Part shown: positions 602 through 57,108 of the stretch, piece after piece
Numbering within the stretch: the first letter of the stretch is position 1
Layout: each line of letters starts with the position of its first letter
NCBI GenBank assembly: GCA_029938605.1
Contig: JAOZUO010000015.1
Span: forward strand, 779-64,778
Direction of reading: 5' to 3'
From: Deltaproteobacteria bacterium
GTDB lineage: Bacteria; Myxococcota_A; Polyangia; HGW-17; JAJRWW01
DNA: 64,000 nt
Translations under genes and position numbers: made by a program
The notes under the pieces: model-generated
The model's database searches: none
The model's input: the letters and a program-made list of their open reading frames with translations, nothing else
What the model was told of the DNA's origin: nothing

Positions 602-2950
602 CTATTCTTTGCCCAGCATGTTCAGGATCCGCTCGGGGATCAGGGGTATGGTGGTTACCGGGCGTCCCAGGGCGGCGGCTACGGCGTTGGCGATGGCGGC
701 GGCGCCGGGGATGAAAGAGGGCTCGCCTATGCCCCGGGCGCCGAAGGGGCCCAGGGGCTCAGGGTCTTCGAGGAACACCATGTTCACGGTCGGCGCGTCC
801 ACGGCGGTGGGGATGAGATAGTCGGCGAAGCTCGGGTTCATGAGCTTGCCCTCTTGCAAAGACAGGTTCTCCATGCAGGCCCAGCCCATGGCTTGGACGG
901 CGCCGCCCTCCACCTGCCCCTCGATGGCGGTGGCGTGGATGACGCGTCCCACGTCGTGAATGGCCGTGATGGACAGGACCTCGAGCTTACCGGTCCAGGT
1001 GTCCACCCGCACCCGGGTGGCGTGGGCGCCGAAACTGTAGAACATGTACGCCTGGCCCTGGCCGGTCTCGGCGTCGTAGTCCCGGGGCTTGCTGCGGTAC
1101 CAGCCCACGGCGGCCGGATTTTCGCGTCGGGCGTGCAGCAGGGCAGCCACCTCCTCGAAGGCGACCCGGCGTTTGGTGTCGGGAGACTCGAAGCCCCCCT
1201 CTACCACGACGAGGGCGTCCGGATCCGGTGCGTCGAGCAGCTCGGCGGCCAGGGGGAGCAGACGGGCCTGGAGCTGATCGGCTGCGTCGCAGATGGCCCG
1301 GCCGCCCACCAGGGTGGCGCGGGAGGCCACCGTGGGACCGGAGTCCGCGACCATATCTGTGTCCACCTCGGTGATCCGGATCCGTTCTTCGTCCGCGCCC
1401 AGGGCGGTGGCGGCGATGGCCCGGGCCGCGGTCAGCGCGCCCTGGCCCATCTCCGTGACGCCGATGGCCACCGACACCGAGCCGTCCGCCTGTACCTGGA
1501 CCAGCGCGCCGCCCCGGTCCAGGGGCTGGCCGCCGTGGTGCAGGTTGGCACCGTAGATGAATACCGAGATGCCGGTGCCCTGGCGATAGCGTTCGTCGTC
1601 TTCCACCAGGCTCGCGGCCGGGCTTGCGGCGGGGCCGTGGACGTCCGCCGTGACCCCACTGTCGGTCATGACCTCACTGTCGGTCATGACCTCACTGTCG
1701 GTCATGACCTCACTGTCGGCCAGGGCGTCGAGCACCGCGCCCAGACGCTCGGTCTGCGCGATGGTCTCGCCCGTGGACCACAGGGGGCGGTCCGGAGTCA
1801 GCGCGTTCAGGCGCCGCACCTGTAGGGGGGGGAGGCCCACCTGCCGGGCCAGGCGGTCCATCTGACACTCATGGACCACGGTGACCTGCGGGGCGCCGAA
1901 GCCGCGGAAGGGGCCGCCAAAGAGGTTGTTGGTGCGCACCACCTGGGTACGGATGCGAACGTTGTCCACCGCGTAGGGCCCCACCAACGAGGTGTTGGCG
2001 CGCTCTGACACCACCGTGGACATGCCCACATAGGCACCCGCGTCCACGATGACCTCGGCGTCCACGCCCAGGATGCATCCCGAGGAGTCAGCGTAGAGCT
2101 TGTGGTGGACGGTCATGCTGTGCCGCTTGGTGGAGGCCTGGAAGTCGAGCTCACGCGGCAGGAGCAACCGCACGGGGCGTCTGGTGCGCTGGGCCAGCAG
2201 CGCCGCGCAGGCGGCGATCTCGTTGGGGTAGTCCTCCTTGCCCCCGAAGCCTCCGCCGGTGGGCGTCTGCAGGACGCGGACTTCGGCCAGGGGCAGATCG
2301 AGCACCTTGGCCACGGCGCTTCGCACGTAGAAAGGGCACTGGGTGGAAGAGTACAGCCACATGCCGCCCGTGGGAGCAGGCACGGCGAGGCAGCCCTGGG
2401 GCTCGAGGTAGGCGTGCTCCTGGCCGCCGATGCGGTAGGTCTCCTCAATGACCACCTCGGCGGTGTCGAGGGCCGATGACAGGTCGCCGCGATCCACGGA
2501 GAAGGTCCTGATGAGGTTGCCGTCGGGGTGAACCTGGGGGGCGTCTGCGTCCAGGGCGTGCTCGGCATCGTAGACGCCGGGCAGGGGCTCTGTCTCCAGC
2601 GCCACGGCCTCCAGTCCCGCCTGACAGGCCGCGGGGGTCTCGGCCACTACCAGGGCCAGCCGCTCGCCCACCATGCGGATCTCCGTCTCCACGAGGAGGG
2701 GCTGGTCGTCGAAGATGATGCCGATCCGGTTTTTGTCGCCCAGGTCGGCGGCGGTCACCACCGCCAACACGCCCTCCACCTGCCGGGCGGCGGCTACGTC
2801 CAGCCGGAGGATGCGCGCCGGTGCCTGGTCACTGGCCAGGATCGCCGCGTGAAGCATGCCCGGGGGGTGTATGTCGCCCACGTAGGGCTGCTTTCCCTGG
2901 ACCTTGGCAGCCGCGTCGGGCCGAATGGACCGTCCACCCACGCCGCTCAT
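602..2950 (-). CDS. Xanthine dehydrogenase/aldehyde oxidase-family molybdopterin-binding large subunit (CoxL/XdhA-like; lacks the CODH VAYRCSFR loop)
   Basis: 782-aa ORF with Ald_Xan_dh_C-type motifs ([22 protein letters not shown]...ECQMD) and an a/b-hammerhead N-terminus. A 4-nt ATGA overlap joins it to the upstream 2Fe-2S subunit. It contains an in-frame 18-bp x ~4 tandem repeat (DSEVMT)n. Confidence 0.88.
1647..1720 (-). repeat. In-frame 18-bp tandem repeat (gtcggtcatgacctcact, ~4 copies) inside the Mo-hydroxylase large subunit; encodes (MTDSEV)n
   Basis: Direct reading shows three perfect 18-mers at 1661-1714 plus a degenerate flanking copy. Confidence 0.9.
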
Positions 2951-3467
2951 GGCTGCTCCTTTGAATGGTCAGAGGTCGCCTGCGCGTCGGGTGCGGCGGC
3001 GCCGACCTTCCGGACGGCGTCCACGACCTTTTTGTAGCCCGTGCAGCGGCAGATGTTTCCCGCCAGGGCCGTGCGGACGACCTCGTCGGTGAGCTCTTTA
3101 TCGCTATCCACCAACGCCCGGGCGCTCATGACGAGCCCGGGGGTGCAGTAGCCGCACTGCACCGCCCCCTCTTCCACGAAGGCCTGCTGGACAGGATCCA
3201 GCCCCCCGGCGCCGTCGCCGAGTCCCTCCACCGTAGTGACCTGACGCTCCGCCGCTGAGCCGAGCACCATGAGGCAGCTACAGATGGGGGCGCCGTCCAC
3301 CAGCACCGTACAGGCGCCGCACTCCCCGCCGCCGCAGCCCTCCTTGGCGCCGGTGAGACCCAGCTCGTTGCGTAGGAAGTCCAGCAGTCGCATGGTGGGA
3401 GAGGCGTCGGTGACATGCACCGTGCCGTTGACCGTGATTCTTATCTTTATAGCGGGCGCGCTCATGA
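2947..3467 (-). CDS. (2Fe-2S)-binding small subunit of Mo-hydroxylase (CoxS/XdhC-iron-sulfur type)
   Basis: Translation MSAPAIKIRITVNG...CGGGECGACTV...QCGYCTPG...CRCTGY shows plant-type and second [2Fe-2S] Cys clusters. Start set at the internal ATG (rc 3465-3467) by homology; the ORF-track 5' extension is Arg/Pro-rich read-through. Confidence 0.85.
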
Positions 3468-4319
3468 CTTCATGCACTCCAGCAGGTGCTCGCGCACCAG
3501 GGCCGCCACCAGCCGGCGGCGGTACTCGCCTGTGGCCCGGTGGTCGTCGATGGGTTGGGCCTGGGCCGCTGCTGCCGCCGCCGCGGTGCGGCAGAGCTCC
3601 TCGGTGAGGGGCTCGCCATGTACCAGCGCCTCGGCCCGGCTCGGCCTCAAGCAGGTGGGGCCCACGGCGGCCAGAGCCAGGCGGCACTGTTGCACCACGC
3701 CGTCGGTGATCTGCGTCACGCCTGCCACGGCGGTCAGACTGCACACCAGGGCGTTGCGACCGCCCACCTTGTTAAAGGACTGATGGGCCGCGGTGTCGTC
3801 CGGGAGCAGGGGGATGGAGAAGGCCTCCAGCAGCTCCCCGGGCGCCAGGGCCGTTGTGCCGGGCCCGCGCAAAAACTCCCCGATGGGGAGGGAGCGGACG
3901 CCGCCCACCGAGCGGAGCATCACCCGGGCCTCAAGCGCCACCAGCGCACAGGCGGTGTCCGCCGCGGGCGAGGCGTTGCAGACGTTGCCGCCCACGGTGG
4001 CCATGTTCTGGATCTGGGCGGCTCCCACCTTGGACGCGGCCTGCGCCAGGGCCGGGAGCTGTCGGACCACCACGGCGTCACCCAGGAGCTGGGTCATGGT
4101 GCACATGGCGCCGATGACGACGGCGTCCCCGGTGGGATGGATGGTGTCGAGGCCGATACGTCCGATGTCCACCAGGACACTGGGCTTCATGTGTCCGACG
4201 CGCATGCGGACCAGCAGGTCGGTGCCGCCCCCCAGGGGGCGCGCGCCGGCTCCTTCGCCCGAAAGGATCGTCAGGGCCTCGGTGATTTTCTTGGGCCGAT
4301 AGTATCTGGGTTCATTCAT
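3462..4319 (-). CDS. FAD-binding subunit of Mo-hydroxylase (CoxM/XdhB-like, FAD_binding_5 + CO_deh_flav_C)
   Basis: Translation MNEPRYYRPKKITEALTIL...GGGTDLLV...ATVGGNVCNASPAAD. The start is taken at the ATG at 4319; an alternative GTG at 4337 would add 6 aa. Order M-S-L matches cox-type operons. Confidence 0.82.
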   Translation of the reverse strand: MNEPRYYRPKKITEALTILSGEGAGARPLGGGTDLLVRMRVGHMKPSVLVDIGRIGLDTIHPTGDAVVIGAMCTMTQLLGDAVVVRQLPALAQAASKVGAAQIQNMATVGGNVCNASPAADTACALVALEARVMLRSVGGVRSLPIGEFLRGPGTTALAPGELLEAFSIPLLPDDTAAHQSFNKVGGRNALVCSLTAVAGVTQITDGVVQQCRLALAAVGPTCLRPSRAEALVHGEPLTEELCRTAAAAAAAQAQPIDDHRATGEYRRRLVAALVREHLLECMKS

Positions 4320-4377
4320 CGGGTGTGACGCTAGCACAAAGAAGAAGTCGCCTCAATTCGATGATACACTTAGGACC

Positions 4378-4602
4378 ATGGACATCCTCCTGTACGTAGT
4401 CCTGGGCATCGGTGTTTTGTGGTTCACCTTCCGGTTCGTGTGGTTCATTCGCAAGCGCGTGATCCTGCGGTGGGCGGGGCGTGTCCGCAACATGCGGTGC
4501 CCGGCCTGCAAATCCAAGCGGCTGGACGACTTCAGCGATGCGGATAGCGGCATGTGCCTATCCTGCGGTCACGTCTGGGGCGTGGATGGTCCTGATTCCT
4601 GA
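4378..4602 (+). CDS. Small membrane protein with C-terminal zinc-ribbon (CPAC...CLSCGH)
   Basis: 74-aa ORF with an N-terminal TM helix, a CxxC...CxxC motif and GC3-rich codon usage. No homology is recognised. Confidence 0.35.
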   Translation: MDILLYVVLGIGVLWFTFRFVWFIRKRVILRWAGRVRNMRCPACKSKRLDDFSDADSGMCLSCGHVWGVDGPDS

Positions 4603-4760
4603 ATAGCGCGGAGGGGTGGCCCCGGCGCCAGCGGGGAACGTATGCGATCAAATGGGTGTCGTAGGACGGTCTTGCCGCGGCCTAGGGAGTGCTGTTACGT
4701 TCGGCGGGTTCGGTGCCCTTGCGCGCCGTTGGACTGCTGACATAGACGTGGAGTCAACCT

Positions 4761-5294
4761 ATGGATCAATACGCTGTGCTCACCGCTGTGGGGCCCGACC
4801 GGCCCGGGTTGGTGGATGTCATCTCCAAGTTCATTCTCGACGCCGGGTGTAACATTGAGGACAGCCGCATGGCCGTGTTGGGCGGCGAGTGCGCCATGGT
4901 GATCCTCGTGGCGGGCGACGTCGACGGGGTCTCGGCGGTGGTCGACGGCGTCGAGGCCGCGGGGACCGCCGCGGGGCTCGTCGTGGGGATCAAGCGCACC
5001 GGCCCTCCCGGCGAGGGGGTCAGCGCCGGGGCCATCCCCTATCGGGTGAGCGCCTACTCCATGGATCACCCGGGCATCGTGCAGCAGGTGACCCACTTCC
5101 TGGGTGAGCTCGGCATTAACGTGCGGGCGCTCGACACCCATGTGACGTCCGCGCCGATCACCGGGCAGCCGCTGTTCTCCCTCAATGCCGTCATCGACGT
5201 GCCCTCCGGCCAGAGCGTCAGGGAGTTGCGTCGGGGGTTGGAGGAGATCGGAGCCGTGGAGAATGTCGATATCGAGGTCAAGCCCGCTGGTTAG
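4761..5294 (+). CDS. Tandem ACT-domain regulatory protein (GcvR-like)
   Basis: 177 aa with two ACT-like halves (GPDRPGLVDVISKFILDAGCNIED... / MDHPGIVQQVTHFLGELGINV...). Confidence 0.7.
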   Translation: MDQYAVLTAVGPDRPGLVDVISKFILDAGCNIEDSRMAVLGGECAMVILVAGDVDGVSAVVDGVEAAGTAAGLVVGIKRTGPPGEGVSAGAIPYRVSAYSMDHPGIVQQVTHFLGELGINVRALDTHVTSAPITGQPLFSLNAVIDVPSGQSVRELRRGLEEIGAVENVDIEVKPAG

Positions 5295-5350
5295 GGCCCA
5301 CCGGTTAGGATGGTTCATTTCCCGAACCCGATGTCTGCGAGAGGTACACG

Positions 5351-6226
5351 ATGAGTGACGTTTTTCGAGAGGTGGCGCGGCTGCGCGACGCAGGTGAGCG
5401 GGGCGTGTTGGTAGTGGTGGTGGAGTCGGTGGGTTCCACCCCGGCCAAGGCCGGAGCGCGTATGATCGTGCGGTCCGATGGCACCACCTTCGGCACCGTG
5501 GGCGGCGGCGCCCTGGAACACCACGCCATCGGGCTCGCTCCCCAGGTGTTGGCCGACGGTGTCCCCCGGTTGTTGCCGCTACACCTGGCCAACGATCTTG
5601 CCATGAGCTGCGGCGGTCAGACCACGCTCTTTGTCGAGCCCTTCGGTGCTGGATCCCGGCTCTACCTCTTTGGCGCGGGGCACATCGCGGTGCAGGTTTG
5701 TGAGATGGCGGCGCGTTGCGGTTTCACCGTGGTGGTGTGCGACGAGCGGGAGGAGCTTTGCAACCCCACGCGCTTTCCGCGCGCGGCGCGGCTGTACGGG
5801 TCGACGGAGGCTGCCGGGCTGGAGGAGCTCGGGATCCGGGATCACCTGGACCAGGCCTACGTGGTGGTGGTCACCCATACCCACGAGCGGGACTTCCGGC
5901 TCGTGCGGGCCATCGCCCCCATGGGGCCGGTCTATATGGGCATGATCGGGTCCAAGCGGAAGCGTCGTACCCTCGACAAGTACCTCGCCGATGCGGGGCT
6001 CGATCCGTCGCTGGGCGAGGCGGTGCGTTGCCCGGCGGGGTTGGGCCTGGGGGGCGACAGCCCGGCCGAGATCGCCCTGGATATCACCGCGGAGCTGGTG
6101 TCCGTCCGATCCGCACGGAGCGCTGCGCTCTCTGCGCTCTCTGCGCCCGCTGCGCCCTCTGCGCCCTCTGCGCCTGCTGCCAAACCGGTTGTTCCAACCG
6201 ACAGCGATCCGGCGAAAAATGGCTGA
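5351..6226 (+). CDS. XdhC/CoxI-family molybdenum-cofactor insertion/sulfuration accessory protein
   Basis: The N-terminal XdhC_CoxI domain reads VLVVVVESVGSTPAKAGARMIVRSDGTTFGTVGGGALE, followed by a Rossmann XdhC_C domain. The C-terminal tail is a low-complexity (SALSAPAAPSAPSAP) repeat. The stop overlaps the next start (ATGGCTGA). Confidence 0.85.
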   Translation: MSDVFREVARLRDAGERGVLVVVVESVGSTPAKAGARMIVRSDGTTFGTVGGGALEHHAIGLAPQVLADGVPRLLPLHLANDLAMSCGGQTTLFVEPFGAGSRLYLFGAGHIAVQVCEMAARCGFTVVVCDEREELCNPTRFPRAARLYGSTEAAGLEELGIRDHLDQAYVVVVTHTHERDFRLVRAIAPMGPVYMGMIGSKRKRRTLDKYLADAGLDPSLGEAVRCPAGLGLGGDSPAEIALDITAELVSVRSARSAALSALSAPAAPSAPSAPAAKPVVPTDSDPAKNG

Positions 6227-6875
6227 GCCGACCCACATCGGGGCGCTGATTCCGGCGGCGGGACGTTCTCGTCGTATGGGGCGGGCCAAGCCGCTTCTGC
6301 CCCTCGGCGATTCTGACTTTGTCGGTTGTATTCTGGGGACCCTGCGGCGCCACGCTCCGGGGGTCGCGCCGGTGGTGGTGATCCACCGGGAGGGGGACCG
6401 GGCGTTGGCGGCACGGCTCGAAGCGCTGGGTGAGGCGCTGGGCGAGGCGAATGTCGGGGTGGCCACGATAGACGATGGCCCGGGAGATATGCTGCGGTCG
6501 CTGCGCGCCGGCGTGGGGCTGCTCGGTGACGCGGTGGGCGCTCTGGTGTGGCCCGTGGACGTCCCGGTAGTGTTGGGCGCCACGGTAGCGAAGGTGCTTG
6601 GTGCGGCCTTCGGGCGGCCGGATCGCGTGGTGATGCCGCTCACGGGTGGGCGGACCGGGCACCCGACGTATGTGCCGCGCACCCTGCTCGAGCCCGGGGC
6701 AGATGCCGGGGTAGCCGCGGACGCACCCCCGGGTTTGCGGGGCGTCCTGGCTTCGGCGAACAAACCCAGAATCGAGGTAGTGGTCGAAGATCGTTTCAGT
6801 CTTTTGAATGTGAACACACCCGAGGACTACGATCTGATCCAAGGATGGTTGCTTCAGGACGGTCCTACGTTATGA
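6219..6875 (+). CDS. MobA-like NTP transferase, probable molybdenum-cofactor cytidylyltransferase (MocA-like)
   Basis: Translation MAEPTHIGALIPAAGRSRRMGRAKPLLPLG matches the MocA/MobA N-terminal motif. The start is taken at the ATG at 6219; the ORF-track 5' extension is read-through of the xdhC tail. An 8-bp overlap with xdhC suggests translational coupling. Confidence 0.75.
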   Translation: MAEPTHIGALIPAAGRSRRMGRAKPLLPLGDSDFVGCILGTLRRHAPGVAPVVVIHREGDRALAARLEALGEALGEANVGVATIDDGPGDMLRSLRAGVGLLGDAVGALVWPVDVPVVLGATVAKVLGAAFGRPDRVVMPLTGGRTGHPTYVPRTLLEPGADAGVAADAPPGLRGVLASANKPRIEVVVEDRFSLLNVNTPEDYDLIQGWLLQDGPTL

Positions 6876-24634: not shown

Positions 24635-25007
24635 ACGCGTAAGACAACGCGTAAGACAATTCATCGGCCCCATCGCCCCTGCTTCACATCAAGTTACGTT
24701 TGGGGAACTGCGAAAAAGTGGCCTCAACTACTCACTGAATGATTCTGGGATCCAGCCGGGATTTGAATCCGATGTACCGATTGGAGGTTTTTGACATACG
24801 CAGTGGGGATATTAGCTCTCTGTTGCGATCTGCCGTAGCGGTTTGTTCGTTATTATTGCTGAGTATTAACGGATATAATGGCGTTGTTGATTGGATGTGA
24901 GCTAAAGCGAAAAACACGAAAAACAGTAGCGACTCAATGAGCAAAATGTTGTATGCATCTTCCGTCGCCGCGGGGGTTTGGTTGGCGGCAGAAGGAGAGT
25001 CTTCGTT

Positions 25008-25577
25008 ATGTCCGTTGTCAATGCAGTCAATCCGGTCACGGACCAAGAAGAGCAGATTCAGGACCTGTTTCAGCGTGTGAAAGCTCTCGAGGCGGCTGCG
25101 CCAGGGGACAGGCTCACTCTGGGCGTCATGAGCGGTAATCTTGATTACACCATGGCGGCCTTTATCATCTCGTTGGGGGCGGTGGCCTACGATATGGAGG
25201 TGGATCTGTTCTTTACCTTTTGGGCCACCGCGGCGCTCCGGGATCCGAAGAAGAGACCACCCAAGAATTTTCTGGACAGGATGTTTGGGTGGATGCTGCC
25301 CAAGGGGACCGGCCAGCTTCCAATCTCCAAAATGCAGATGGGGGGCGTGGGTCCCCAGATGATCAAATACGTCATGAAAAAGAACGGCGCCAAATCACTG
25401 GATGAGCTGATTCAGGATGCCGGCGATTTCGGCGTGAGGATTCACGTTTGTGAGATGTCCATGGACATCATGGGGCTCAAAAAAGAGGAGATGATCGACT
25501 ATCCCTACCTGGACTATGTCGGTGTAGGGACCTTCTTGAGCCTGGTGCAGGACTCGAAATCGACCTGGTTCCTGTAG
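25008..25577 (+). CDS. DsrE/DsrF-like family protein (sulfur-relay/peroxiredoxin-like fold)
   Basis: The start at 25008 has a strong SD (gaaggagag) 8 nt upstream. Translation MSVVNAVNP...MSGNLDYTMAAFIISLGAVAYDMEVDLFFTFWA...VRIHVCEMS. It sits in a lower-GC segment. Confidence 0.65.
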   Translation: MSVVNAVNPVTDQEEQIQDLFQRVKALEAAAPGDRLTLGVMSGNLDYTMAAFIISLGAVAYDMEVDLFFTFWATAALRDPKKRPPKNFLDRMFGWMLPKGTGQLPISKMQMGGVGPQMIKYVMKKNGAKSLDELIQDAGDFGVRIHVCEMSMDIMGLKKEEMIDYPYLDYVGVGTFLSLVQDSKSTWFL

Positions 25578-35295: not shown

Positions 35296-36222
35296 ATGCA
35301 AACACGTAGTCCCCATGGGAGTTTTTACGGAGGCAGAAAGCTGTTTCGACGCTTTGCCTTCTCGGTGAGCGTTGGGCTGCTATTGGGCAGTCTGGCGGGG
35401 TGCGGCGACCAATGCCCGGCAGACACTCCGACGGACGCTGGAGCGGGTGACGCCGGGGATGCGGCGACGCGCGAGTGCATCGTGCCCGAGGTGTCCTGTG
35501 GCCCGGGCGAAATCGCTGAATATGGGCTCTGCTTCCCGAATACGGATGAGACCGTGGTGACTGCCGGCACCTTTGATATGGGCGCTCCCAGCGGCACGGA
35601 GTTTCCCGTGCACGCCGTGACACTCAGTGAGTTCACTATCGACGTGACCGAAGTCACCAACGAGCGATTCGAGGCTTGTGTGGACGCCGGATGCTGCGAT
35701 CCGCCGAGCTATGACGGCTCCTATACCGGCCGCGAGCCCTACTACGGGAACCCTCAATACGCGCAGTATCCCGTGGTCTTCGTTACCTGGGACCAGGCCC
35801 GACAGTACTGCGAAGGCCTGGAAAAAAGGTTGCCGACCGAGGCCGAGTGGGAGTACGCGGCCCGGGGTGACGATGGCCGAACCTACCCCTGGGGCTCGGG
35901 ACCGCCAGACGACTCACTGGCCAATTTCGATTCGGCGCAAAATGGTGACACCGAAGCGGTGGGAGACTACCCGGACGGTGCTTCGCCCTTCGGCGCTTTG
36001 GATATGGCAGGCAATATCTGGGAATGGGTCGCCGACTGGTACGATGTTGACTACTACGACTCGAGCCCGGGCACCGACCCAACGGGGCCGGAGTCGGGGG
36101 TGTTCCGGGGTGCCCGCGGGGGTTCCTTCGGGTCCGGAGCGACGACGCTCTACTCCTTCTACCGGATGTCGTATCTGCCCACCGAGTCATTTGGTAACCT
36201 GGGCTTTCGTTGCGCCAGATAG
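35296..36222 (+). CDS. FGE-sulfatase (formylglycine-generating enzyme/SUMF1) family lipoprotein
   Basis: Lipobox LLGSLAGC. FGE-domain motifs: RVTEVTNERFEACV...PVVFVTWDQARQYCEGLEKRLPTEAEWEYAARG...PWG...GNIWEWVADWY...RGGSF...FRC. Confidence 0.85.
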   Translation: MQTRSPHGSFYGGRKLFRRFAFSVSVGLLLGSLAGCGDQCPADTPTDAGAGDAGDAATRECIVPEVSCGPGEIAEYGLCFPNTDETVVTAGTFDMGAPSGTEFPVHAVTLSEFTIDVTEVTNERFEACVDAGCCDPPSYDGSYTGREPYYGNPQYAQYPVVFVTWDQARQYCEGLEKRLPTEAEWEYAARGDDGRTYPWGSGPPDDSLANFDSAQNGDTEAVGDYPDGASPFGALDMAGNIWEWVADWYDVDYYDSSPGTDPTGPESGVFRGARGGSFGSGATTLYSFYRMSYLPTESFGNLGFRCAR

Positions 36223-42178: not shown

Positions 42179-43747
42179 GTGTCCATGATTCACGGCCCAA
42201 GACTGCTTCCTGTTCTTGCCCTTGCCATCGGCGTTGTCTGTGGCGTCGGTGGCGCTGCCTGTCACCCGCCTGCCGGGGGTTGGGGTCGGGTGCGGATTTT
42301 GGAGAGTCACCTGACCTCCACGAGCTGGACCGTGGTGGTGGACGATCAGGGTCAAGGCGTGGAGCTCTTCGTGGACGGCTCTCCCAGGCGAGGCCTGTGC
42401 CGGCGGGGAGGGCAGGGGGTTCGCTGCTGGGTGAGCGGTCTGCGGCCGGGGTACCACCGGTTGGCGGTGACCGTGGCGGGCAAGGGGACCTCGCGGCGAT
42501 CGGGACTGTCGGCCACGCGAAAGCCCTTGGATGAGATCTTCTACGGTGTGCTGCTGGACCGCTTCGCCGATGGCGATGCGTCGAACAACTTGCGGGTGAA
42601 TCCCGAGGACCCCTTGGCCGCCCACGGAGGGGATCTGCGCGGTTTGCGACGGCGGCTGGGGCATTTGAAGCGGCTCGGGGTGACGACCCTGGTGGTCTCG
42701 CCCCTTTGGGAGTCGGGTCGCCAGAAGCCAAAGGTCGGGGCGCTCGGGCTGTACGTGGGTGCGCGGCCCCTGCGGCCGCGGCTCCTGTCGCGCGCCCTCG
42801 GTTCGTCCAGATCGCTGATGCGGCTCCTGCGGGCTGCCCGTCGGCGGGGGCTGCGGGTGGTGCTCGATCTGCCACGTGCGGGCGCCGACCTGGGCTCCTA
42901 CCTGGTCACGCTGCGCACCTGGCTCACCCGGACCTTGGCCGACGGTGTACGGATGGGGCCCTTTGCGCCCGGAGAGGAGGCGGCCTGGGCCAAGGCGACC
43001 GGTCAGTTGGTCCGTTCTTTCACGCCGCTGCTGCTCATTCACCACGGCACCGGCGATGTCGGGCGGCTGCGTTCGGCCCTGGCTAAGGTCCCGGCGGGCG
43101 CCGGCCTCATCGAAAGTAAGGCGGCCGGTCGCGCGTTGCTCGCGTGGGTGGGCGGGGCGTCTGGCGTCGCCGCACCCTCGGGCCCGCTGACCAAGCCGTT
43201 GCCCCGGGGCGTGGTGCGCGTGCTGAGCAGCCATCGGGCCCCGGTCCTCGCCAGGAGGTTGGGCTCGGGCGCGCGCGGTTCCTTGACCTTGACATTGCAT
43301 CTGCTTCTGGCCGAAATACCTAAGGTGTACTACGCAGACGAGATGGACCAGCCCCCGCGTGGCCAGGCCCACCCGGACATGGATTGGTCTGAGGTCAAAG
43401 GTGGCCCCCGGGGGCAGCTCATCCGGAAGATCCTCGGCCTGCGCCGGGGCGTGGCGGCCCTGCGGCGCGGCGATCAGACGGTGGTTCGTCGGGGCGACCT
43501 TTTGACGGTGGGGCGGAGCCTGGGGCGGTGCCGGGTCATCGTGGTGGCCAACCGCTCGAACAAGCCGCGTACGCTGGTGCTCGATACCACGCAGTTGGGG
43601 TGGCCACCTCAATCCGGCGAGTTGGAGCTTGTGGATCGACTCGGTGGGCGCGGCTACACCCTCGTGAAAAATCGGCTCACCATCGAGCTTACGCCTGTGT
43701 CGGCGCGGGTGCTCGTGCCGGCGGGCAGCGGAGCGTGCAGTGGCTGA
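42179..43747 (+). CDS. Alpha-amylase (GH13)-family protein, probably catalytically degenerate
   Basis: The N-terminal region [18 protein letters not shown]...[31 protein letters not shown] aligns with the GH13 N-terminal barrel start (IYQ.FPDRF.NGD..ND..GGDL.GI..KLDYL..LG..AIWL.P). Downstream catalytic regions (GFR.DAAKH, EVW, NHD) are not recognisable. Confidence 0.6.
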
Positions 43748-44852
43748 AGTCAGGTTCGAAGACGTCAAGAAGTCCTTCGGCAAGGTCACGGTCATTGAGC
43801 ACCTGGATCTCACCATCTCCGGCGGTTCGTTTGTGGTGTTGGTGGGGCCTTCGGGCTGCGGTAAATCCACCACCCTGCGCATGATCGCCGGCCTGGAGGA
43901 GATCACCGACGGAGAGTTGTTCATCGACGACCGGGTGGTCAACGACGTATCCCCCAAGGACCGCGACATCGCCATGGTCTTCCAGAGCTACGCGCTCTAC
44001 CCGCACATGACCATCTACAAGAACCTCGCCTTCGGGTTGCTATTGCGAAAGACCCCCAAAGCGGAGATCGACAAGCGGGTGCGGGGCGTGGCCGAAGTGC
44101 TCGGGCTCGAGCCCTTTTTAGATCGTCTGCCCAAGCAGCTCAGCGGCGGTCAGCGGCAACGGGTGGCCATGGGGCGCGCCATCGTGCGCGAGCCCAAGGT
44201 GTTTCTCTTCGACGAACCCCTGTCCAACCTGGACGCCAAGTTGCGCGCCCAGATGCGTCGGGAGATTGCTCAGCTCCACCGAGACAAGGGCACCACCATC
44301 GTGTACGTGACCCACGACCAGGTGGAGGCCATGACCCTCGCCGATATCATCGTGGTCATGCACGAGGGGAGGATCATGCAGCAGGGGTCGCCCCTGCATC
44401 TGTACGACCGCCCGGTCAACCGGTTCGTGGCCGAGTTCATCGGCAGCCCGCAGATGAACATCGTTGCGGTGACGGTCCAGAACAAGGGGGGGGAGCTGGT
44501 GCTCGCGGGAGAGGGATTCGTTCTCGCCGCGCCTCAGAGCTTTGACGTAGAGGCGGACCAGTCGGTGCTGGTGGGGATCCGCCCCGCGGACGTTCGGATC
44601 CTGAGCGGTGACGCGGATGATGCGGAGGTCACCTGCGTCGGCGAGGTGGAGGTCCATGAGCCCATGGGCGCCGAGGCCATGAGCACGGTGGTCACCAAGC
44701 TCGGCACCATCACCGTACGCGAGGAGGGTCACGGATCGGCGTCCATCGGCGAAACGGTCCGGTTGGGCTTTGGGGCGGACCTGGTGCACCTGTTCGACGG
44801 CGAGACCGAACAGTCCCTTCGCAAGGGCTCCCAAAGTGAGGAGGAGGCGTGA
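43740..44852 (+). CDS. ABC transporter ATP-binding protein, sugar type (MalK/UgpC-like)
   Basis: The GTG start overlaps the upstream stop. Motifs: Walker [11 protein letters not shown]-loop, signature [16 protein letters not shown], Walker [12 protein letters not shown], and a C-terminal TOBE-like domain. Confidence 0.9.
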
Positions 44853-46357
44853 TCCACCGGCTCGTTCCACGATCCGGAAGTCTGTTCCGGCTTTCGACGG
44901 CTCCGAACGCCGATGTCTGCGTTGCTCCTCAGTTGAGTACTCCCGGTACGCGCCCTCGTCGCGCCTTGCCCTCGTCGCTCGGCCCTCGCCGAAAACCCGG
45001 AACGCTTTTCCGGGTCGTAGAACGAGTGCTCGCCGCCCCGGTGTGGGTGGTAGTTTTCGGCTTGAGCCTGGGCTTGGCGTGGCCGTTGGCGGGGTGCAAC
45101 CGCCAACGCAGCGAACATGTGGTTACCCTTTGGCACTCCTACCGTGGCACGGAGCGCAAGGCGTTGAAGCGGCTGGTTCGCGCCTTCAACGAAAAGGAGC
45201 GTACCCGAGCGAAGGCCTTCACCGGCTACACCCCCGCACGGGTCCGGCTGCTGCAGATCTCCTTCGACAATCTGCCCAACAAGATCACCAACGCCGTGCC
45301 CCGCGGCCATGGACCGGACCTGTTCGTTTTTGCCCACGATCGTGTGGGCGACTGGGTCTCCAAGGAGCTCGTTGAGCCCATCGGTTACTGGGTGGGTCCT
45401 GCGTTGGCGGGGCGGTTTCTGCCCAAGACCCTGGGCGCTTTCGCCATGGGGCAGCGGCTCTACGGGCTGCCCCTCACCTACAAGAGCGTGGCACTTTTTT
45501 ACCACGCGGATCTCATTCAGACGCCGCCGCGTACCACCGAGGAGCTGCTTTCGGCGGGGCGCCGGTTCATGAAGAACCGCGGTAAGGGCTACTACGGGCT
45601 GGTGTACGAGGCCGCGGACACCTACTTCCACGCGCCCTGGCTTTTTGGTTTCGGCGGGCGGTTTTTGACCCGCTGCGCCGCGGGGGAGGCCCCGGCGGGG
45701 AGCTGCAAAAAGCGGAGCCTGCCCATCCACACCCCCGAGGCCGTACGGGCCCTGACCTTCGCCCGGCGCCTGGCGGGCTCCGGAGGCATCGTACCGCCGG
45801 AGGTCACGGGCCAACTGGTGACCTCGCTGTTCACCCAGAAGAAGGCGGCCATGGCCATCTCGGGCCCCTGGTTCATCAGCGATCTGCAGGCTGCCTCCAA
45901 GCATCGTGTCCTGCGTGTGCGCGTGGCACCTCTGCCGAAGGTCTCCGAGGCGGGCAACCGCCCCGCCGCGCCGTTGCTCACCGTGGAGGGGATCTTCCTG
46001 TCTCGGTTCAGTCGTCAGAAGCGCCTGGCCTTCCGGGTCATGCGGGCGCTCACCAGTGACTCGGCCTCGGAGTTTCGTCTGAGAGCGGCCCGCCAGCTAC
46101 CGGCCAACGTGCTGGTGGATAAGAAGCTCAGTGATCCCCGGTCCAGGCTCCACTCCCCCATGCTGTCGGCCTTCCGGCAGCAACTGGACTACGCCCGCCC
46201 TACGCCCAAGACGCCCTTCATGCGGGTGATCTGGGAGCCTTACAAGAAGGCCCTCGCTGCGGTGATCCAGCGGGGAGAGGATCCGGACGCCGCGCTGAAG
46301 CGGGCTGCTAAGGAGATCCGGCGCGTGCTGGGCTCCTGTCTGGGGAGGAGGCAGTGA
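44849..46357 (+). CDS. Sugar ABC transporter substrate-binding lipoprotein (MalE/maltodextrin-binding family-like)
   Basis: Lipobox PLAGC. The length and pattern (HSYRG...FNEKE..., [14 protein letters not shown]...) fit cluster-B sugar-binding proteins. Confidence 0.7.
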
Positions 46358-48141
46358 AGCAGCGGACCGCCAGCCTCCGCGGTGTGATCCTGACCTGGTT
46401 CCTGGGCGCCGTGGTGTTGGGTGTGTTCACGTTGGGCGCCATGGTGCGTCAGCGGAACCTGGCCACGCGCGCTTCCAACGAGCGCGCTGCCCGGCAGCGG
46501 CTCGCCGATTTGCAGGGGCCGGTGCGTATTGCCCTGGCCCGGGGCGAGACTGCGCGGGTGCAGGAGCTGCTGGAGGGGGCGGCGAGTCGGGCCGACGTGT
46601 CAGAGGCGGTGCTGCTCCGGTCCAAGACGCTGTCGACGAATCTGGCGTTTTTGAGGGATGTACACCTGGTGGCGCACGGCGATCGAACCATCGGGGTGGG
46701 GCCCATCCGCGGTGAAGTGCGGTCGCGAGCCCTGTCGCCCGCCTACGCCAAACAGCTCTACGACTGGACGGGGCGGGTGCTCGAGCGCAAGCGGACGGAT
46801 CTGCGCTGGCTCAGCCCGCCGGGCGTGGCGGAGCGTATGGAGGTGGGGCAGCGGATCTCCCTGCCCAAGGGGGACTACGTCCTGGGGTTGCGAGTGAGGC
46901 CGCTGATTCGGCCGGTAGCCGTGCCGGTGTTGCTGCTGGTGGTGTTGCTGCTGATGGGCCTGGCGGTGCCCCTTGCGAACCGCGCGGCCACGGGGCGTTG
47001 GCAGTGGCTCGCCAGCGGCGCGGGCATGGCGTTCATGGGCGCGGCCTGCGGGGTGCTCCTGGCGGGATACGAAACCTGGGTGGTGCGGGCGCCGGCTTCC
47101 ACGGGCGTGGGCGGGCTCCTCTCCACGGGGATCTCCCAGGGGGTGCCCGGCGGAGGTGTGGGGTACGTCTGGGGGCTGGTGTCGCTGGTCGTTCTCGGCC
47201 TGGTGGGGCTGGCCTGGCGCGGCACGGGGCATCGGGTGGCCAGCGCATTCAAAGAGCACCGGATCGCCATGGCCTACATCGTGCCCGCCGCCCTGGGCAT
47301 GATCGTGCTGGTTTTGGTGCCCTTCGCCGTGGGCATTGTGCTGGGCTTCTTCAACCACTGCGACGGGCGCTTCGAGTACGTGGGGTTGGCCAACTTCACC
47401 GACATCTTATCGGGGGGCGGCACCTCCGTCACGGACCCGCTGAACTTCTGGTTCACCCTGGGCGTGACGCTCCTTTGGACGAGCCTGAACGTGGTGCTCC
47501 ACGTCTCCATCGGCCTGGGGTTGGCGCTGCTGCTCAAGGACCCGCTGCTCAAGGGCAAGGGGGTCTACCGGGTGCTGCTCATCCTGCCCTGGGCGGTGCC
47601 CAACTACATCACCGCCCTCATGTGGAAGGGCATGTTCCACCAACAGTTCGGCGCGGTGAACCAGGTACTCGGGGTCTTCGGCATCGACAAGGTGAGCTGG
47701 TTCTCCCACTTCTGGACCTCCTTTACGGCGAACGTGGTGACCAACACCTGGCTGGGTTTTCCCTTCATGATGGTGGTGACCCTGGGCGCCCTGCAGTCCA
47801 TTCCCACGGACCTGTATGAGGCCGCCGAAGTGGACGGCGCCTCCAAGTGGTATCAGTTCAGCCGGATCACGCTGCCGCTGCTCAAGCCCGCGCTCTTACC
47901 GGCGGTGATTCTGGGCGCCATCTGGACCTTCAATATGTTCAACGTGATCTACCTGGTGTCTGCTGGAGAGCCCGCGGGGTCCACTGACATTCTGATCACC
48001 GAGGCCTACCGCTGGGCCTTCATCCGCCACGAGCGCTACGGCCTCGCCGCGGCCTACGCCACGCTCATCTTCTTGATCCTACTGGCGTATTCACTCATTA
48101 CCAACCGGGTCGCCAAGGGTGCCGAGGGGACGTTTAAATGA
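46354..48141 (+). CDS. ABC transporter permease (MalF-like) with long N-terminal extension
   Basis: EAA loop EAAEVDGASKWYQFSRITLPLLKPAL, at least 8 TM helices, and an extra ~290-aa N-terminal region with 3 TM. Confidence 0.85.
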   Translation: MKQRTASLRGVILTWFLGAVVLGVFTLGAMVRQRNLATRASNERAARQRLADLQGPVRIALARGETARVQELLEGAASRADVSEAVLLRSKTLSTNLAFLRDVHLVAHGDRTIGVGPIRGEVRSRALSPAYAKQLYDWTGRVLERKRTDLRWLSPPGVAERMEVGQRISLPKGDYVLGLRVRPLIRPVAVPVLLLVVLLLMGLAVPLANRAATGRWQWLASGAGMAFMGAACGVLLAGYETWVVRAPASTGVGGLLSTGISQGVPGGGVGYVWGLVSLVVLGLVGLAWRGTGHRVASAFKEHRIAMAYIVPAALGMIVLVLVPFAVGIVLGFFNHCDGRFEYVGLANFTDILSGGGTSVTDPLNFWFTLGVTLLWTSLNVVLHVSIGLGLALLLKDPLLKGKGVYRVLLILPWAVPNYITALMWKGMFHQQFGAVNQVLGVFGIDKVSWFSHFWTSFTANVVTNTWLGFPFMMVVTLGALQSIPTDLYEAAEVDGASKWYQFSRITLPLLKPALLPAVILGAIWTFNMFNVIYLVSAGEPAGSTDILITEAYRWAFIRHERYGLAAAYATLIFLILLAYSLITNRVAKGAEGTFK

Positions 48142-48989
48142 TCGGTCGCCGCAGCCGGGTCAAGTCCGTACTGATCCACGCCGTGCTGATCACGGTGACC
48201 GTGGTGACGCTCTTCCCCGTGGCCCTGGTGATGCGCAAATCCCTGTCGCCGGGCAACGAGTTTGAGCTGAGCCTCAATCCCATTCCGGAAAAAACCACCA
48301 TCAGCCACTACAAGACCGTACTGAGTGCGCGTGACTTCTCCGGCCGCTGGCTTTTCGGGCGCCAGCTTTGGAACTCCTTCGTGGTGGCCGTGCTCACCAC
48401 CATCATGGGCGTGTTTCTCGCCTCCACGGCGGCGTATGCTCTCAGTCGGTTCCGGTTCCCGGGGCGCCGCTTCGGCATGATGATTTTCTTGGTGGTCCAG
48501 ATGTTCCCGGCCACGCTGATCATGATCCCGCTGTACGTGATCCTGGACAGGCTGGGCCTGCTCGATTCGGTCCTGGGGTTGGTGCTGGTGTACTCCACCA
48601 CGGCGATCCCTTTTTGTGTGTTCATGCTCAAGGGGTACTTCGACACCATCCCGCGTGAGCTCGAGGAGGCCGCCTGGATCGACGGCGCCTCCCGTTTCGG
48701 CATGTTCTGGCGGGTGGTCCTACCCCTGTCCAAGCCCGCCCTGGCGGTGACCGCGCTCTTCTCTTTCATGACCGCCTGGAACGAGTACATCCTCGCCGAG
48801 ACCTTCCTCAACAATGAGGCCTCCTACACCCTGCCGGTGATGCTCAAGCACTACGTGGGCGACAAGTCCGCTGACTGGGGATCCTTCGCCGCCGGTGCCA
48901 TCCTCGTGTCCCTGCCGGTCATGGCCCTGTTCTACATGCTACAAAAGGCCCTGGTCTCCGGACTCACCGCCGGAGGCGTGAAGGGGTAG
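48138..48989 (+). CDS. ABC transporter permease (MalG-like)
   Basis: EAA loop EAAWIDGASRFGMFWRVVLPLSKPAL and 6 TM helices. Confidence 0.9.
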   Translation: MIGRRSRVKSVLIHAVLITVTVVTLFPVALVMRKSLSPGNEFELSLNPIPEKTTISHYKTVLSARDFSGRWLFGRQLWNSFVVAVLTTIMGVFLASTAAYALSRFRFPGRRFGMMIFLVVQMFPATLIMIPLYVILDRLGLLDSVLGLVLVYSTTAIPFCVFMLKGYFDTIPRELEEAAWIDGASRFGMFWRVVLPLSKPALAVTALFSFMTAWNEYILAETFLNNEASYTLPVMLKHYVGDKSADWGSFAAGAILVSLPVMALFYMLQKALVSGLTAGGVKG

Positions 48990-49012: not shown

Positions 49013-50437
49013 TCAGGGGGTCCGAACGCACCGGAAACCGGTGTTGACCGGCTCGCGTGTGGGGTCGTCCCACTCGCGCCCCGTGACCCTTTGATAGATG
49101 GTGTCGGAGTGGTAGAAGCCCCCGCCTCGGATGACCTTGTTTGCGCTGTTTGTCCCGGAGTTCACCGGGTCCGTGCAGCCGCTCGCGCAGTCGTTGTAGA
49201 TGTTGTCGTCGTAGGTATCCAACATCCACTCCCACACGTTCCCCGCCATGTCCATGAGCCCGTAAGGTGAGTCTCCATTACCGCTCGACAGGTACCCCAC
49301 TGGCCAGGTTTGCGGGGCGGTGGCCGAGTAGCACTGGTTAAAGTTACTGTAACTGCAGCCGGGCCCCGGGGAGTCTCCCCAGGGGTACATTCGCTGGTCT
49401 GGGGATGCGCCCCGGGCGCCCTTTTCCCACTGCGCCTCGGTGGGAAAGTCGCCGCCCAGCCAGGCCTGACAGTACTCACGGGAGTCCAGCCAGGGCAGGC
49501 AGTTGATGGGGTGGGATTCCCGCCCCGCCGAGGTCGTGGTCCAGTTGCACAGCTCACTGGTGCCGGTGTCGTTGGGCGTGCTGGTGCACGCTCCCGCGGT
49601 GCGACAAGAGCGGTACATGGCCAAGCTCACCTCGGTCTTCTGGATGCAGTAGGCGGTGAGGGTCACCGTGTGGCGGGGCTGCTCGTCCGTTTCACAGGTG
49701 CCGCCCAGCTCACCGGAGTTGCAGCCCATCTGGAAGTCTCCGGCGGGGATGTGGGCCCAGCCAATCGGGCAGCCGTTGGCGTGGCACTCTCCGACGCCGG
49801 GCGCGTTGTCGTCGCAGTCGGCGGCCAGGTCGCAGTCCGTGCCGCGCAGGGAGTCGCCGTCGGCGTCGGTGCAGTTGGCGCAGCCGCTTGCGGTCCAGTT
49901 CTGGTCGTCTTCGTCGCAGGAGTCCTCGGGAAGATCGCACCCCGTGCCGCGGTACCCGTCCCCGTCGCCGTCAGCGCAGGCCGCGCAGCCCGCCACCGTC
50001 CAGTTCTGCCCATCGCTGTCGCAGGCGTCGTCTCCCGCCAGGCAGTCCACGCCATGGTTGTCACCGTCGTTGTCCTGGCAGGTGAGACTTTCGCACGTTC
50101 CGTTGGCGCAGGCGGTTCCCGAGGTGGTGGTGCAGTTCTGGCAGCTCCCGCCGCCGGCGCCGCAGTAGCTGTCGGTGATTCCGGTCTGGCACACGTCCGC
50201 CAAGTCACAGCATCCGGCGCAATTGGTTGGGTTGCACTGGGATCCGGCGTCGGGGCTCCCGTCTGGGGGAAGGCCTGCGTCGTCGGTGTCGGCGTTGGTG
50301 TTATCGTTAGCGTTGGCGTTAGCGTTGGCGTTGGTCCCGGGGTTGAAGCTGACCAGGCAGCCCCCGAGCAGCAGTGAAGCCGATAGCACTGTTTGGGTCA
50401 ACCACAGACCACAAAATGACCAGACAGCATCTTTCAT
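49013..50437 (-). CDS. Lipoprotein: N-terminal Cys-rich region with MopE-like DGDG motifs fused to C-terminal FGE-sulfatase domain
   Basis: Lipobox LLLGGC and an (NA)n repeat. The N-terminus has CQDNDGDNHGVDC...CADGDGDGYRGTGC...CTDADGDSLRGTDC. FGE-domain motifs follow: RHTVTLTAYCIQKTEVS...WLGGDFPTEAQWEKGARG...PWGD...GNVWEWMLD...RGGGF...FRC. Confidence 0.8.
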   Translation of the reverse strand: MKDAVWSFCGLWLTQTVLSASLLLGGCLVSFNPGTNANANANANDNTNADTDDAGLPPDGSPDAGSQCNPTNCAGCCDLADVCQTGITDSYCGAGGGSCQNCTTTSGTACANGTCESLTCQDNDGDNHGVDCLAGDDACDSDGQNWTVAGCAACADGDGDGYRGTGCDLPEDSCDEDDQNWTASGCANCTDADGDSLRGTDCDLAADCDDNAPGVGECHANGCPIGWAHIPAGDFQMGCNSGELGGTCETDEQPRHTVTLTAYCIQKTEVSLAMYRSCRTAGACTSTPNDTGTSELCNWTTTSAGRESHPINCLPWLDSREYCQAWLGGDFPTEAQWEKGARGASPDQRMYPWGDSPGPGCSYSNFNQCYSATAPQTWPVGYLSSGNGDSPYGLMDMAGNVWEWMLDTYDDNIYNDCASGCTDPVNSGTNSANKVIRGGGFYHSDTIYQRVTGREWDDPTREPVNTGFRCVRTP

Positions 50438-52476: not shown

Positions 52477-52920
52477 TCACCGGCGCCCGCTCCCGTGCAT
52501 GGGCATCGTCCCCGCCGGAAAAAGGATCTTCATGCAGTCCGCCATGTCCTCCATTTTCTTCATCTTTAGAAAGCACCGCGCCGCCTCGTCGGCTTTTTGC
52601 CCGCCGGTTTTCTTGAGGCCGTTGATGCAGGCCCGGCGTCCACGGCGTGCCTTGTCCGTGGGCGCGCCGGTGACCTGAGCGAACACTCCGAGGGCGTGGG
52701 TGCAGGCCCGGGTCCACAGCGCTTCGCCGGACTGCGGTTCACCCGCCATGGTCTGGGACACCGCGGGTTGCGGGGGCTTTTTGTCCTGGCAGCCGCTCAG
52801 TGTCGCCAGTACCGCCAGTGCCGCCAGTGCCGCCAGTGCCGCCAGTGCCGCCAGTGCCGCCAGTGCCGGGATTGTGGCCGACGGGATGGAAAACGAAACG
52901 TAGGATGTACCGGTTCTCAT
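52477..52920 (-). CDS. Small lipoprotein; signal peptide contains 9-bp x7 tandem repeat encoding (AAL)n
   Basis: Lipobox TLSGC. A cgccagtgc x7 repeat at 52804-52867 encodes ALAALAALAALAALAALAVLATLSGC. Confidence 0.55.
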   Translation of the reverse strand: MRTGTSYVSFSIPSATIPALAALAALAALAALAALAVLATLSGCQDKKPPQPAVSQTMAGEPQSGEALWTRACTHALGVFAQVTGAPTDKARRGRRACINGLKKTGGQKADEAARCFLKMKKMEDMADCMKILFPAGTMPMHGSGRR

Positions 52921-53196
52921 GGTCGCGCACTACACCACCGTAGCTGGCGGTGGTCAACCGCGTGCGCTGTCAGGGTGGTCGCAAAGTCGGAAAATAGGTG
53001 TCATCCCGACCGAGCGCAGCGAGCGGAGGGATCTCTTACGTGCTCAAGTAGGAGAGATTCCTCAACTCGCCTTCGGCTCGCTCGGAATGACAACCGTCGA
53101 CAAGCGGGTCAACAACGACTTTGCGACTGCCCTGCGTGCACAGTTGTGTCTTATTGCTTCGATGGTAGAAGCGGCTATATTGTAGGCTCTCTGCGC

Positions 53197-54282
53197 ATGA
53201 TTTGGCGTGGAAACCGAGGAGTTGAGGCTTTGTTTGAGAAACGTGATTTTAGCCGGCTGACTGCGCTGGCCTCCTGCGCGGGCTGAGCGGCCAAGACCTC
53301 CCCGGAGGTTCTGGCGCAGGTCGTGCGTCCGTTGATGGATTTTTTCCCGGCCGATCTGGCGCCGGACGTGATCATTGGCTTGGGCGCCGTGGATGATGCC
53401 GCCGTGCACCGCATCGGGGACGGGCGGGTGAGCGTGGTGTCCCTGGACTTTTTCCCCCCCGTGGTGGATGACGCCACCGACTATGGCGCCATCGCCGCCG
53501 CTAACTCCATGTCCGACGTCTGGGCCATGGGCGCGGATCCGGTGCTGGCGCTGTGCATCGCGCTTTTTCCGAAGGACATGCCCACCGGGGTCGCGTCGAA
53601 AATCCTGCTGGGCGCGGCGGAGCGGGTGCGTGCCGCGGGAGCTGTGATCGCCGGTGGCCACACCATGGACAGCCAGGAACCGGTTTTTGGGCTCGCGGTC
53701 ATTGGTCTCGGCGACGAGGACGGACTGATGCTCAAGGGCGGCCTGAAGGTGGGGCAGAAGCTGGTGCTGAGCAAACCCCTGGGGTCAGGTCTGCTGACCA
53801 CGGTGGCCAAGCGTGGAGACCTCTCGGCCGAGGACCTGTCTGACGCCATAGGAATCATGAAACGCCTCAACGGCCCGGCGGCCCGGGTGGGGCGTCAGTA
53901 CGGCGTGCGGGGCGCCACGGATATCACGGGGTTCGGCTTGGCGGGTCACGCCTTGGAGATGGCTGCGGGCGCGGGCGTAGGGTTGCGTCTCGGGCTCGAC
54001 GAGGTGCCCCTCATGGGGTCGGTGATGCGCTGGGCTGAGCAGGGGGCCTTCGCCGGAGGCGCCCACCGCAATCGGAAGGCCTACGAGGGACGGATCACCT
54101 TCGCCTCCTCGGTGTCCGAGGCCCTACAGATGTTGCTGTTTGATCCGCAGACCAGCGGCGGTCTGCTCATGGGCGTGGACGCGGACCGCGCCGACGCGCT
54201 GGTCGCCCAGCTCCGCGAGACCGATCCTGAGACCGCCATCGTCGGCGACGTCGTACAGGGGTCGGGCATGGAAGTCGGGTAG
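53197..54282 (+). CDS. selD: Selenide, water dikinase (selenophosphate synthetase) SelD, selenocysteine-containing: in-frame TGA at 53284-53286 recoded as Sec
   Basis: The ORF track starts at GTG 53323, but the frame is homologous upstream through a single TGA: ...RLTALASCAG-U-AAKTSPEVLAQVV... aligns with E. coli SelD RLTQYSHGAG-C17-GCKISPKVLETIL. Downstream homology is unambiguous (DDAAV..., AAANSMSDVWAMG, GGHT). Start candidates are the ATG at 53197 or TTG at 53230 (GAGGAG SD 8 nt upstream). A hairpin at 53290-53315 immediately 3' of the UGA is a SECIS candidate. Confidence 0.8.
53290..53315 (+). promoter_or_regulatory. Candidate bacterial SECIS hairpin downstream of the selD UGA
   Basis: gcca/uggc lower stem, accuc/gaggu upper stem, 4-nt apical loop containing G. 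It begins 4 nt after the UGA. Confidence 0.4.
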
Positions 54283-54321
54283 CACCCGGCCTGAGCGATC
54301 GAGGTGTTTTGAGACAGGTCC

Positions 54322-57108
<2,787 letters not shown>

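Follow-up and report, generated by a model that had tools for sequence, protein, structure and literature searches.

Sec-type SelD proteins and the selD gene of the window

No bacterial selenoproteins are more widespread than FdhA and SelD, and every surveyed bacterium that uses selenocysteine (Sec) had at least one of them (PMC1794560). Sec-type SelD has been listed in the myxobacterium Anaeromyxobacter dehalogenans, as well as in Geobacter, Desulfovibrio, and Moorella (PMC1794560). SelD ranks as the second largest and second most widespread prokaryotic selenoprotein family, with Sec in an N-terminal loop (PMC13188914), and the SECIS elements of Sec-type SelD genes were recovered computationally in an earlier work (PMC4561486).

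We analyzed a stretch of 64,000 nucleotides (hereafter the window) and found in it a selD gene that is very probably a selenoprotein gene, where the UGA of the catalytic site would encode Sec and the complete SelD would span positions 53230 to 54282. The main features of the gene are the following:

53230-54282, plus strand: predicted coding sequence of selD (selenide, water dikinase), 350 codons long with one putative Sec codon among them, and the TAG stop at 54280-54282
53275-53277, plus strand: Cys codon three residues before the Sec position (C-A-G-U, a CxxU motif), invariant in UGA-type relatives, the Cys-type homologues having C-A-G-C, a CxxC motif
53284-53286, plus strand: in-frame UGA, putative Sec codon at the position of Cys17 of E. 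coli SelD in the alignment with structure 3u0o, found as TGA in 81/81 aligned sequences and in loci L088 and L089
53293-53295, plus strand: Lys codon equivalent to Lys20 of E. coli SelD in the 3u0o alignment, invariant in the family

The core of this reading, i.e., a selD selenoprotein gene with UGA at the catalytic Cys/Sec position, is supported because the match to the family extends across the UGA, the TGA is present in 83/83 relatives, Sec and Cys replace each other at this site among homologues, and a predicted SECIS of the consensus type lies downstream. It is from these comparisons that we infer the insertion of Sec. Since SelD is one of the two commonest bacterial selenoproteins, the finding is an ordinary one: the Sec-type selD described here is an ordinary member of a long-known class that includes a gene of a myxobacterium.

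The comparison with catalogued Sec-type SelD revealed no substantial difference. The proteins belong to the same family, share the AIRS/AIRS_C architecture, and have Sec in the N-terminal loop followed by a Lys three residues on, while at the DNA level both have a UGA and then a stem-loop within the coding region. The motif G-U-A-A-K of the window SelD is identical to that of Aquifex aeolicus SelD (PDB 2yye/2zod). The crystallised chain of the latter reads SSG-C-AAK at the site equivalent to the UGA, and this protein is a natural Sec enzyme that was crystallised as a Sec-to-Cys mutant. The clade of the window differs from it at position -3 of Sec, where it has an invariant Cys (C-A-G-U) instead of the Ser of A. 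aeolicus SelD. The second Cys is at -3 in this clade, at +2 of Cys17 in E. coli SelD, and missing in A. aeolicus. A further trait of the clade is that 32 nt, including a short extra hairpin, separate the UGA from the loop of the putative SECIS. E. coli SelD (3u0o) resembles the window SelD in its full-length match, catalytic loop, Lys20, and the Asp and Asn motifs for metal and ATP. However, it uses Cys (UGC) and has no SECIS, whereas the corresponding residue of the window SelD is encoded by UGA.

Family assignment across the UGA codon

In the track of open reading frames, selD runs from GTG 53323 to the TAG ending at 54282, and the TGA at 53284-53286 lies in the same frame, 39 nt before this start. 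Counting from ATG 53197, there are 29 codons, the TGA, and 12 further codons before position 53323. The translation around the TGA reads ...RLTALASCAG*AAKTSPEVLAQVV..., which is the peptide that the preliminary description had given as RLTALASCAG-U-AAKTSPEVLAQVV.

We searched the read-through translation of 53197-54282 against SelD families, with the stop written as Cys for both NCBIfam models. It scored above the cutoffs of TIGR00476, the SelD equivalog (322.4 bits, cutoff 125), and of NF002098 (304.1 bits, cutoff 299). The match to TIGR00476 covers positions 1-310 of the 311 of the profile and begins upstream of the TGA. The best match by HMMER among solved structures was E. coli SelD 3u0o (E = 1.4e-62, residues 19-357). 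The alignment, which starts at residue 6 of the chain, places the stop on Cys17 and the next Lys on Lys20 (S-C-A-G-[U]-A-A-K vs. H-G-A-G-C17-G-C-K20), in agreement with the earlier claim that the TGA occupies the Cys17/Sec site of SelD. Lys20 is essential in the E. coli enzyme. The motifs DDAAV, DFF (LDFF), N-x-x-SD (ANSMSD), and TD-x-TGFG (TDITGFG) are conserved between the two proteins; in E. coli SelD the ligands of ATP and metal are D51, D68, N87, D91, and D227. The domains PF00586 (AIRS) and PF02769 (AIRS_C) are recorded for the exact product of the window selD, which has a database match on a contig of 1.9 kb.

Almost all of the closest SelD proteins in the database have lengths of 315-323 aa and match only about 90% of the query, so gene callers evidently cut these genes at the UGA. 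The preliminary description had anticipated such 5'-truncated annotations, and nearly all of the closest proteins are indeed cut at the N-terminus. The practical value of the observation thus concerns annotation, since standard gene callers cut selD at the UGA and the catalytic loop is lost from the protein. Once corrected, the gene marks its host, an uncultured Myxococcota-like bacterium, as a likely user of Sec. Neither of these two points alters existing knowledge of SelD, whose UGA and SECIS are on record from many phyla.

Conservation of the UGA codon among relatives

A scan for relatives using one genome per species retrieved 80 loci (L001-L080). Five of these belong to Myxococcota or delta-type MAGs, at 54-76% identity, and the other 75 to Chloroflexota, for the most part Anaerolineae, at about 50% identity; the peptide patterns used in the search bias this list. 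The TGA is present at the homologous codon in 80/80 loci, in the context C-[A/S]-G-U-A-[A/S]-K. It is also found in L088 and L089, which are closer relatives from long contigs with 89% and 82% identity, and the overall count is 83/83 related genes from two phyla, Myxococcota and Chloroflexota, at 50-98% identity. The codons upstream of the TGA differ mostly synonymously between relatives, e.g., TGC GCG GGC vs. TGT GCC GGT. Since the upstream peptide is kept through synonymous changes, it must be translated in this frame. A separate assembly of run SRR21545381 (L081) had no mismatch with the window over positions 52839-54795, TGA included.

A sequencing error, or the conservation of another frame in close relatives, had been named in the preliminary description as what might overturn the Sec reading. 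The second, identical assembly, the same TGA throughout the relatives, and the synonymous conservation of the upstream frame all speak against these possibilities, and we rejected both a sequencing error and a pseudogene given the conservation of the TGA and the identity of the assemblies. More generally, the TGA could be a true stop, resulting from pseudogenization or a sequencing error, or leaving a functional truncated product that starts at GTG 53323 or ATG 53335. Such a product is what gene callers give for nearly all relatives, and no Sec machinery was seen in the window. We regard this as extremely unlikely: the TGA is found in all 83 relatives down to about 50% identity, the peptide upstream is under purifying selection, the second assembly is identical, and the TIGR00476 match starts before the TGA. 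Moreover, a truncated SelD would be devoid of the loop from Cys/Sec17 to Lys20, which E. coli SelD requires for catalysis. The conservation of the TGA effectively refutes a true stop.

Returning to the Sec reading, we compared the UGA-type genes with homologues where the site is occupied by Cys. Eight full-length homologues of the same subfamily, at 46-49% identity, have C-A-G-C-A-[A/S/G]-K, and the six Cys-type homologues that we checked at the DNA level have TGC or TGT at the site. On these alignments, the alternation of TGA with TGC or TGT among homologues is a standard Sec/Cys pair.

Outside the small Myxococcota group to which it belongs, this SelD has its nearest relatives almost exclusively in Anaerolineae (Chloroflexota), with which it shares the context of the UGA and the candidate SECIS. 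This likeness between Myxococcota and Anaerolineae could result from horizontal transfer of the Sec-type selD.

Position of the start codon

The preliminary description had placed the start at ATG 53197. We favor TTG 53230 instead, which is the more likely start from the sequence and from the relatives, giving a gene at 53230-54282. The TTG is preceded by a putative ribosome-binding motif:

53217-53222, plus strand: Shine-Dalgarno-like GAGGAG, read from the sequence, 7 nt upstream of TTG 53230

We found no Shine-Dalgarno motif before ATG 53197, and the 11 extra residues that this start would add are conserved no further than in the closest relative, L088. In the Myxococcota group, every relative has its start 2-4 codons ahead of the conserved RDF motif and a Shine-Dalgarno motif preceding that start. 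The arrangement of AGGAG, spacer, and TTG is also present in the close relatives L088 and L089, while L001 and L003-L005 have a motif of the AGGAG or GGAG type before an ATG or GTG start.

Two hairpins downstream of the UGA

The consensus model of the bacterial SECIS (bSECISearch) comprises an apical loop of 3-9 nt, a stem of 4-16 bp, and a minimum free energy of -7.5 kcal/mol or less, with a G at loop position 1 or 2, mostly as N1-G-[G/U]-N-N2, and a spacing of 16-37 nt from the UGA to the loop (PMC13188914, Fig. 2). Two hairpins follow the UGA of the window selD:

53290-53315, plus strand: H1, lower stem GCCA/UGGC, upper stem ACCUC/GAGGU, loop CCCG
53313-53329, plus strand: H2, best-supported SECIS candidate, 6-bp stem GGCGCA/UGCGUC, apical loop GGUCG at 53319-53323

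The first of these, H1, had been put forward as the SECIS candidate in the preliminary description. The hairpin itself stands (-13.6 kcal/mol), but it is probably not the SECIS: it departs from two consensus criteria, since its loop (CCCG) has no G at either of its first two nucleotides and begins only 14 nt past the UGA, and it is not conserved across the family. A fold of 52 nt at H1 gives z = -1.17 relative to shuffles, and 8% of the sequences that encode this peptide with other synonymous codons equal or exceed it in stability. H2 has an energy of -8.1 kcal/mol and a distance of 32 nt from the UGA to the loop, toward the upper limit of the published range of 16-37 nt, and the GTG 53323 start of the track of open reading frames falls inside it. 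Judged from the window alone, it is only slightly ahead of synonymous recodings that keep the peptide (p about 0.06). It is also the weakest H2 of its subgroup, owing to a G:U pair. In the window, neither hairpin stands out for the encoded peptide (p = 0.06-0.08), and folding statistics of the single sequence were uninformative overall (p = 0.06-0.18 relative to synonymous recodings). Hence, the assignment of H2 rests on comparative data. Rfam gave nothing relevant, either for the whole window at gathering thresholds or for 53230-53400 at E up to 10.

Across the family, H2 agrees with all four published criteria in 79/81 UGA-type genes, the window included, and 97% of its cells are paired. Its family consensus is G-[GUN]-C closed by a G:C pair, which fits N1-G-[G/U]-N-N2. 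The cells of H1 are paired in 36% of the cases across 77 distinct family sequences, which is the value of controls slid by 1-3 columns, and the H1 region conforms to the SECIS criteria in 5/81 sequences. Variation at third codon positions is 0-0.45 bits inside the stems of H2, compared with 1.7-2.0 bits in loops and flanks. At pair 31:45, 38 sequences have A:U, 30 have G:C, and 8 have G:U, with no A.C, and the pair couples the choice of a Thr or Ala codon to that of an Arg codon. This compensatory switch between A:U and G:C concerns one pair and may reflect few evolutionary events. Among the six Cys-type genes, the equivalent of H2 is unfolded in five (0 to -3.5 kcal/mol), and the sixth has a remnant stem with an AUC loop devoid of G. 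At the protein level, Cys forms mostly have Ile or Met in place of the loop Val (GUN) found in Sec forms. These comparisons suggest that the SelB-binding SECIS is probably H2 rather than H1.

The same pattern bears on whether the UGA might be read without selenium, as Cys, Trp, or Gly, by near-cognate decoding, a suppressor tRNA, or a reassigned code. In favor of such a reading, the Sec machinery is absent from the window. However, a hairpin of the SECIS type accompanies the UGA and is gone where the codon is TGC or TGT, which is the signature of SelB-dependent decoding. In addition, TGA terminates 18 of the 37 predicted genes of the window, where it is the commonest normal stop codon. The code is therefore the standard one and recoding is specific to this site, and we rejected a reassigned genetic code on this count. 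The probability of read-through without selenium is accordingly minimal.

Given that H2 is the preferred SECIS, we also weighed the opposite assignment, where H1 would be the functional element and H2 would be kept for another reason, such as a protein constraint on A-Q-V-L-R-P. H1 folds more stably than H2 in the window (-13.6 vs. -8.1 kcal/mol), its loop sits at roughly the distance from the UGA that the loop of the E. coli fdhF SECIS has, and some bacterial SECIS elements deviate from the consensus model (PMC13188914, PMC12013277). It is also kept within the Myxococcota subgroup, and L001 and L005 form 11 continuous pairs through changes in the codons GUN and YUG. However, the loop of H1 in L001 is UCCU, with no G, and, as given above, the pairing of H1 across the family equals that of slid controls and its region conforms to the model in only 5/81 sequences. 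Furthermore, a protein constraint can explain neither the loss of H2 in Cys-type genes nor the complete lack of synonymous variation at the four-fold sites of its stem, while the four-fold sites of the loop and flanks vary freely. We thus hold the assignment to H1 to be quite improbable, and keep H2 as the SECIS candidate.

H2 is comparable to the SECIS of E. coli fdhF, which is also a stem-loop of the coding region, downstream of the UGA, with a small apical loop beginning with G-G-U. The two are nearly the same at the apex, with GCA-GGUC-(G)UGC in H2 and UGCA-GGUC-UGCA in fdhF, the latter sequence being verified in 5,419 E. coli genomes. They differ in distance, since the G-U of the loop is at nt 37-38 in H2, counted from the U of the UGA, and at 23-24 in fdhF, i.e., 14 nt less. 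They also differ in the lower part, where the window has the separate short hairpin H1 and not a continuation of the same helix as in fdhF.

The hairpin that intervenes between the UGA and H2 (53296-53309 in the window, columns 16-29 of the alignment of L006-L080) is conserved as a structure, while its sequence and register change. It is ACCUC-CCCG-GAGGU in Myxococcota, whereas Chloroflexota have AGCGC-NGAN-GCGCU (88% paired), with little synonymous variation at columns 18, 27, and 30. Most Cys-type genes lack the hairpin. H1 may be an accessory or spacer hairpin, and is probably not the element bound by SelB. One could envisage a SECIS in two parts in this clade of SelD, where the distant H2 (32-33 nt) is brought to the right distance from the ribosome by the intervening hairpin acting as a spacer. 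We find this idea unlikely; if true, it would define a distinct sub-class of bacterial SECIS.

In the Myxococcales relative L002, the conserved H2 is lost and the segment reads CAG AUG GUG GCC (positions 1277-1330 of the locus). The same region has a substitute hairpin of 7 bp, GCGCCAG-AGGUG-CUGGCGC, whose loop is 19 nt after the UGA. It looks like a remodelled SECIS.

Sec machinery and proposed decoding

In the mechanism that we propose from the established bacterial pathway, the UGA at 53284-53286 would give Sec as the catalytic residue in the N-terminal glycine-rich loop, and its decoding would involve a hairpin bound by SelB, for which H2 is the best candidate (6-bp stem, GGUCG loop, 32 nt past the UGA). 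The resulting SelD would make selenophosphate from selenide and ATP, and selenophosphate would be used in the synthesis of Sec-tRNA(Sec). The expression of selD would then depend on its own product, because Sec-tRNA(Sec) synthesis requires selenophosphate.

We found no selA, selB, or tRNA-Sec in the 64-kb window, using Pfam and NCBIfam on all long ORFs and ARAGORN for the tRNA, and ARAGORN revealed no tRNA gene of any kind in it. There was also no match to SelU/YbbB among the long ORFs of the window (Pfam/NCBIfam). Nor did the surroundings of selD in the relatives examined (6-10 kb) reveal any: ARAGORN found no tRNA-Sec in L001-L060, and there were no Sec genes among the called genes within 10 kb of selD in L088 and L089. 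We infer that selA, selB, and selC are elsewhere in the genome. A scan of in-frame TGA codons for a second selenoprotein in the window gave two candidates that we rejected, at 4353 (an ordinary junction of a stop followed by a start) and at 26890 (an antisense frame).

The preliminary description had also remarked on a Mo-hydroxylase operon with XdhC and MocA maturation genes in the window, as a possible user of selenium. The operon is there, in a cluster of the xanthine dehydrogenase family:

602-6875: Mo-hydroxylase cluster, about 47 kb from selD
602-2950, minus strand: large subunit
about 2947-3744, minus strand: 2Fe-2S subunit
3462-4337, minus strand: FAD subunit
4761-5294: ACT-domain protein
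5351-6226: XdhC-like protein
about 6237-6875: MocA-like protein

Its link with selenium found no support in the window. All proteins of the cluster are below the NCBIfam equivalog cutoffs, including that of the Se-dependent xanthine dehydrogenase (TIGR03311 Se_dep_XDH, 392 vs. a cutoff of 830) and those for the XdhC-like protein (200 vs. 350 and 141 vs. 162). The trait of the Se cofactor is marked only by SelD, YqeB, and YqeC together (PMC9312934), and we found no match to YqeB or YqeC among the ORFs of the cluster or the other long ORFs of the window, to which the search was confined; the genome could encode the trait elsewhere. On these grounds, and because about 47 kb separate the two, we discarded a connection of selD with the Mo-hydroxylase operon.

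A DsrE2-like sulfur-carrier protein is encoded at 24978-25577 (PF13686, E = 8e-42), with an uninterrupted domain and no in-frame TGA. DsrE-like proteins are a selenoprotein family in some Deltaproteobacteria.

Genomic neighborhood of selD

The gene is apparently monocistronic. A small lipoprotein-like ORF diverges from it on one side and a hybrid histidine kinase converges on it from the other, an order common to the close relatives L088 and L089. Just upstream of selD, the ORF at 52477-52920 (minus strand) contains a 9-nt tandem repeat, GCCGCCAGT, in 8.4 copies with 92% matches (52792-52868). The GCCGCCAGT repeat encodes (Ala-Leu-Ala)n in the signal-peptide-like N-terminus of this small lipoprotein-like ORF. 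The hybrid histidine kinase (54322-57108, minus strand) has a perfect 18-nt tandem repeat in 3.1 copies at 54766-54821, encoding PEPSHQ three times in a linker, and a second 18-nt repeat at 54712-54753. Further away in the window, two proteins resemble formylglycine-generating enzymes (FGE-sulfatase domain), at 35296-36222 and 49013-50437 (minus). One of them adjoins a sugar ABC transporter operon at 43740-48989, in the same order as in L088 and L089.
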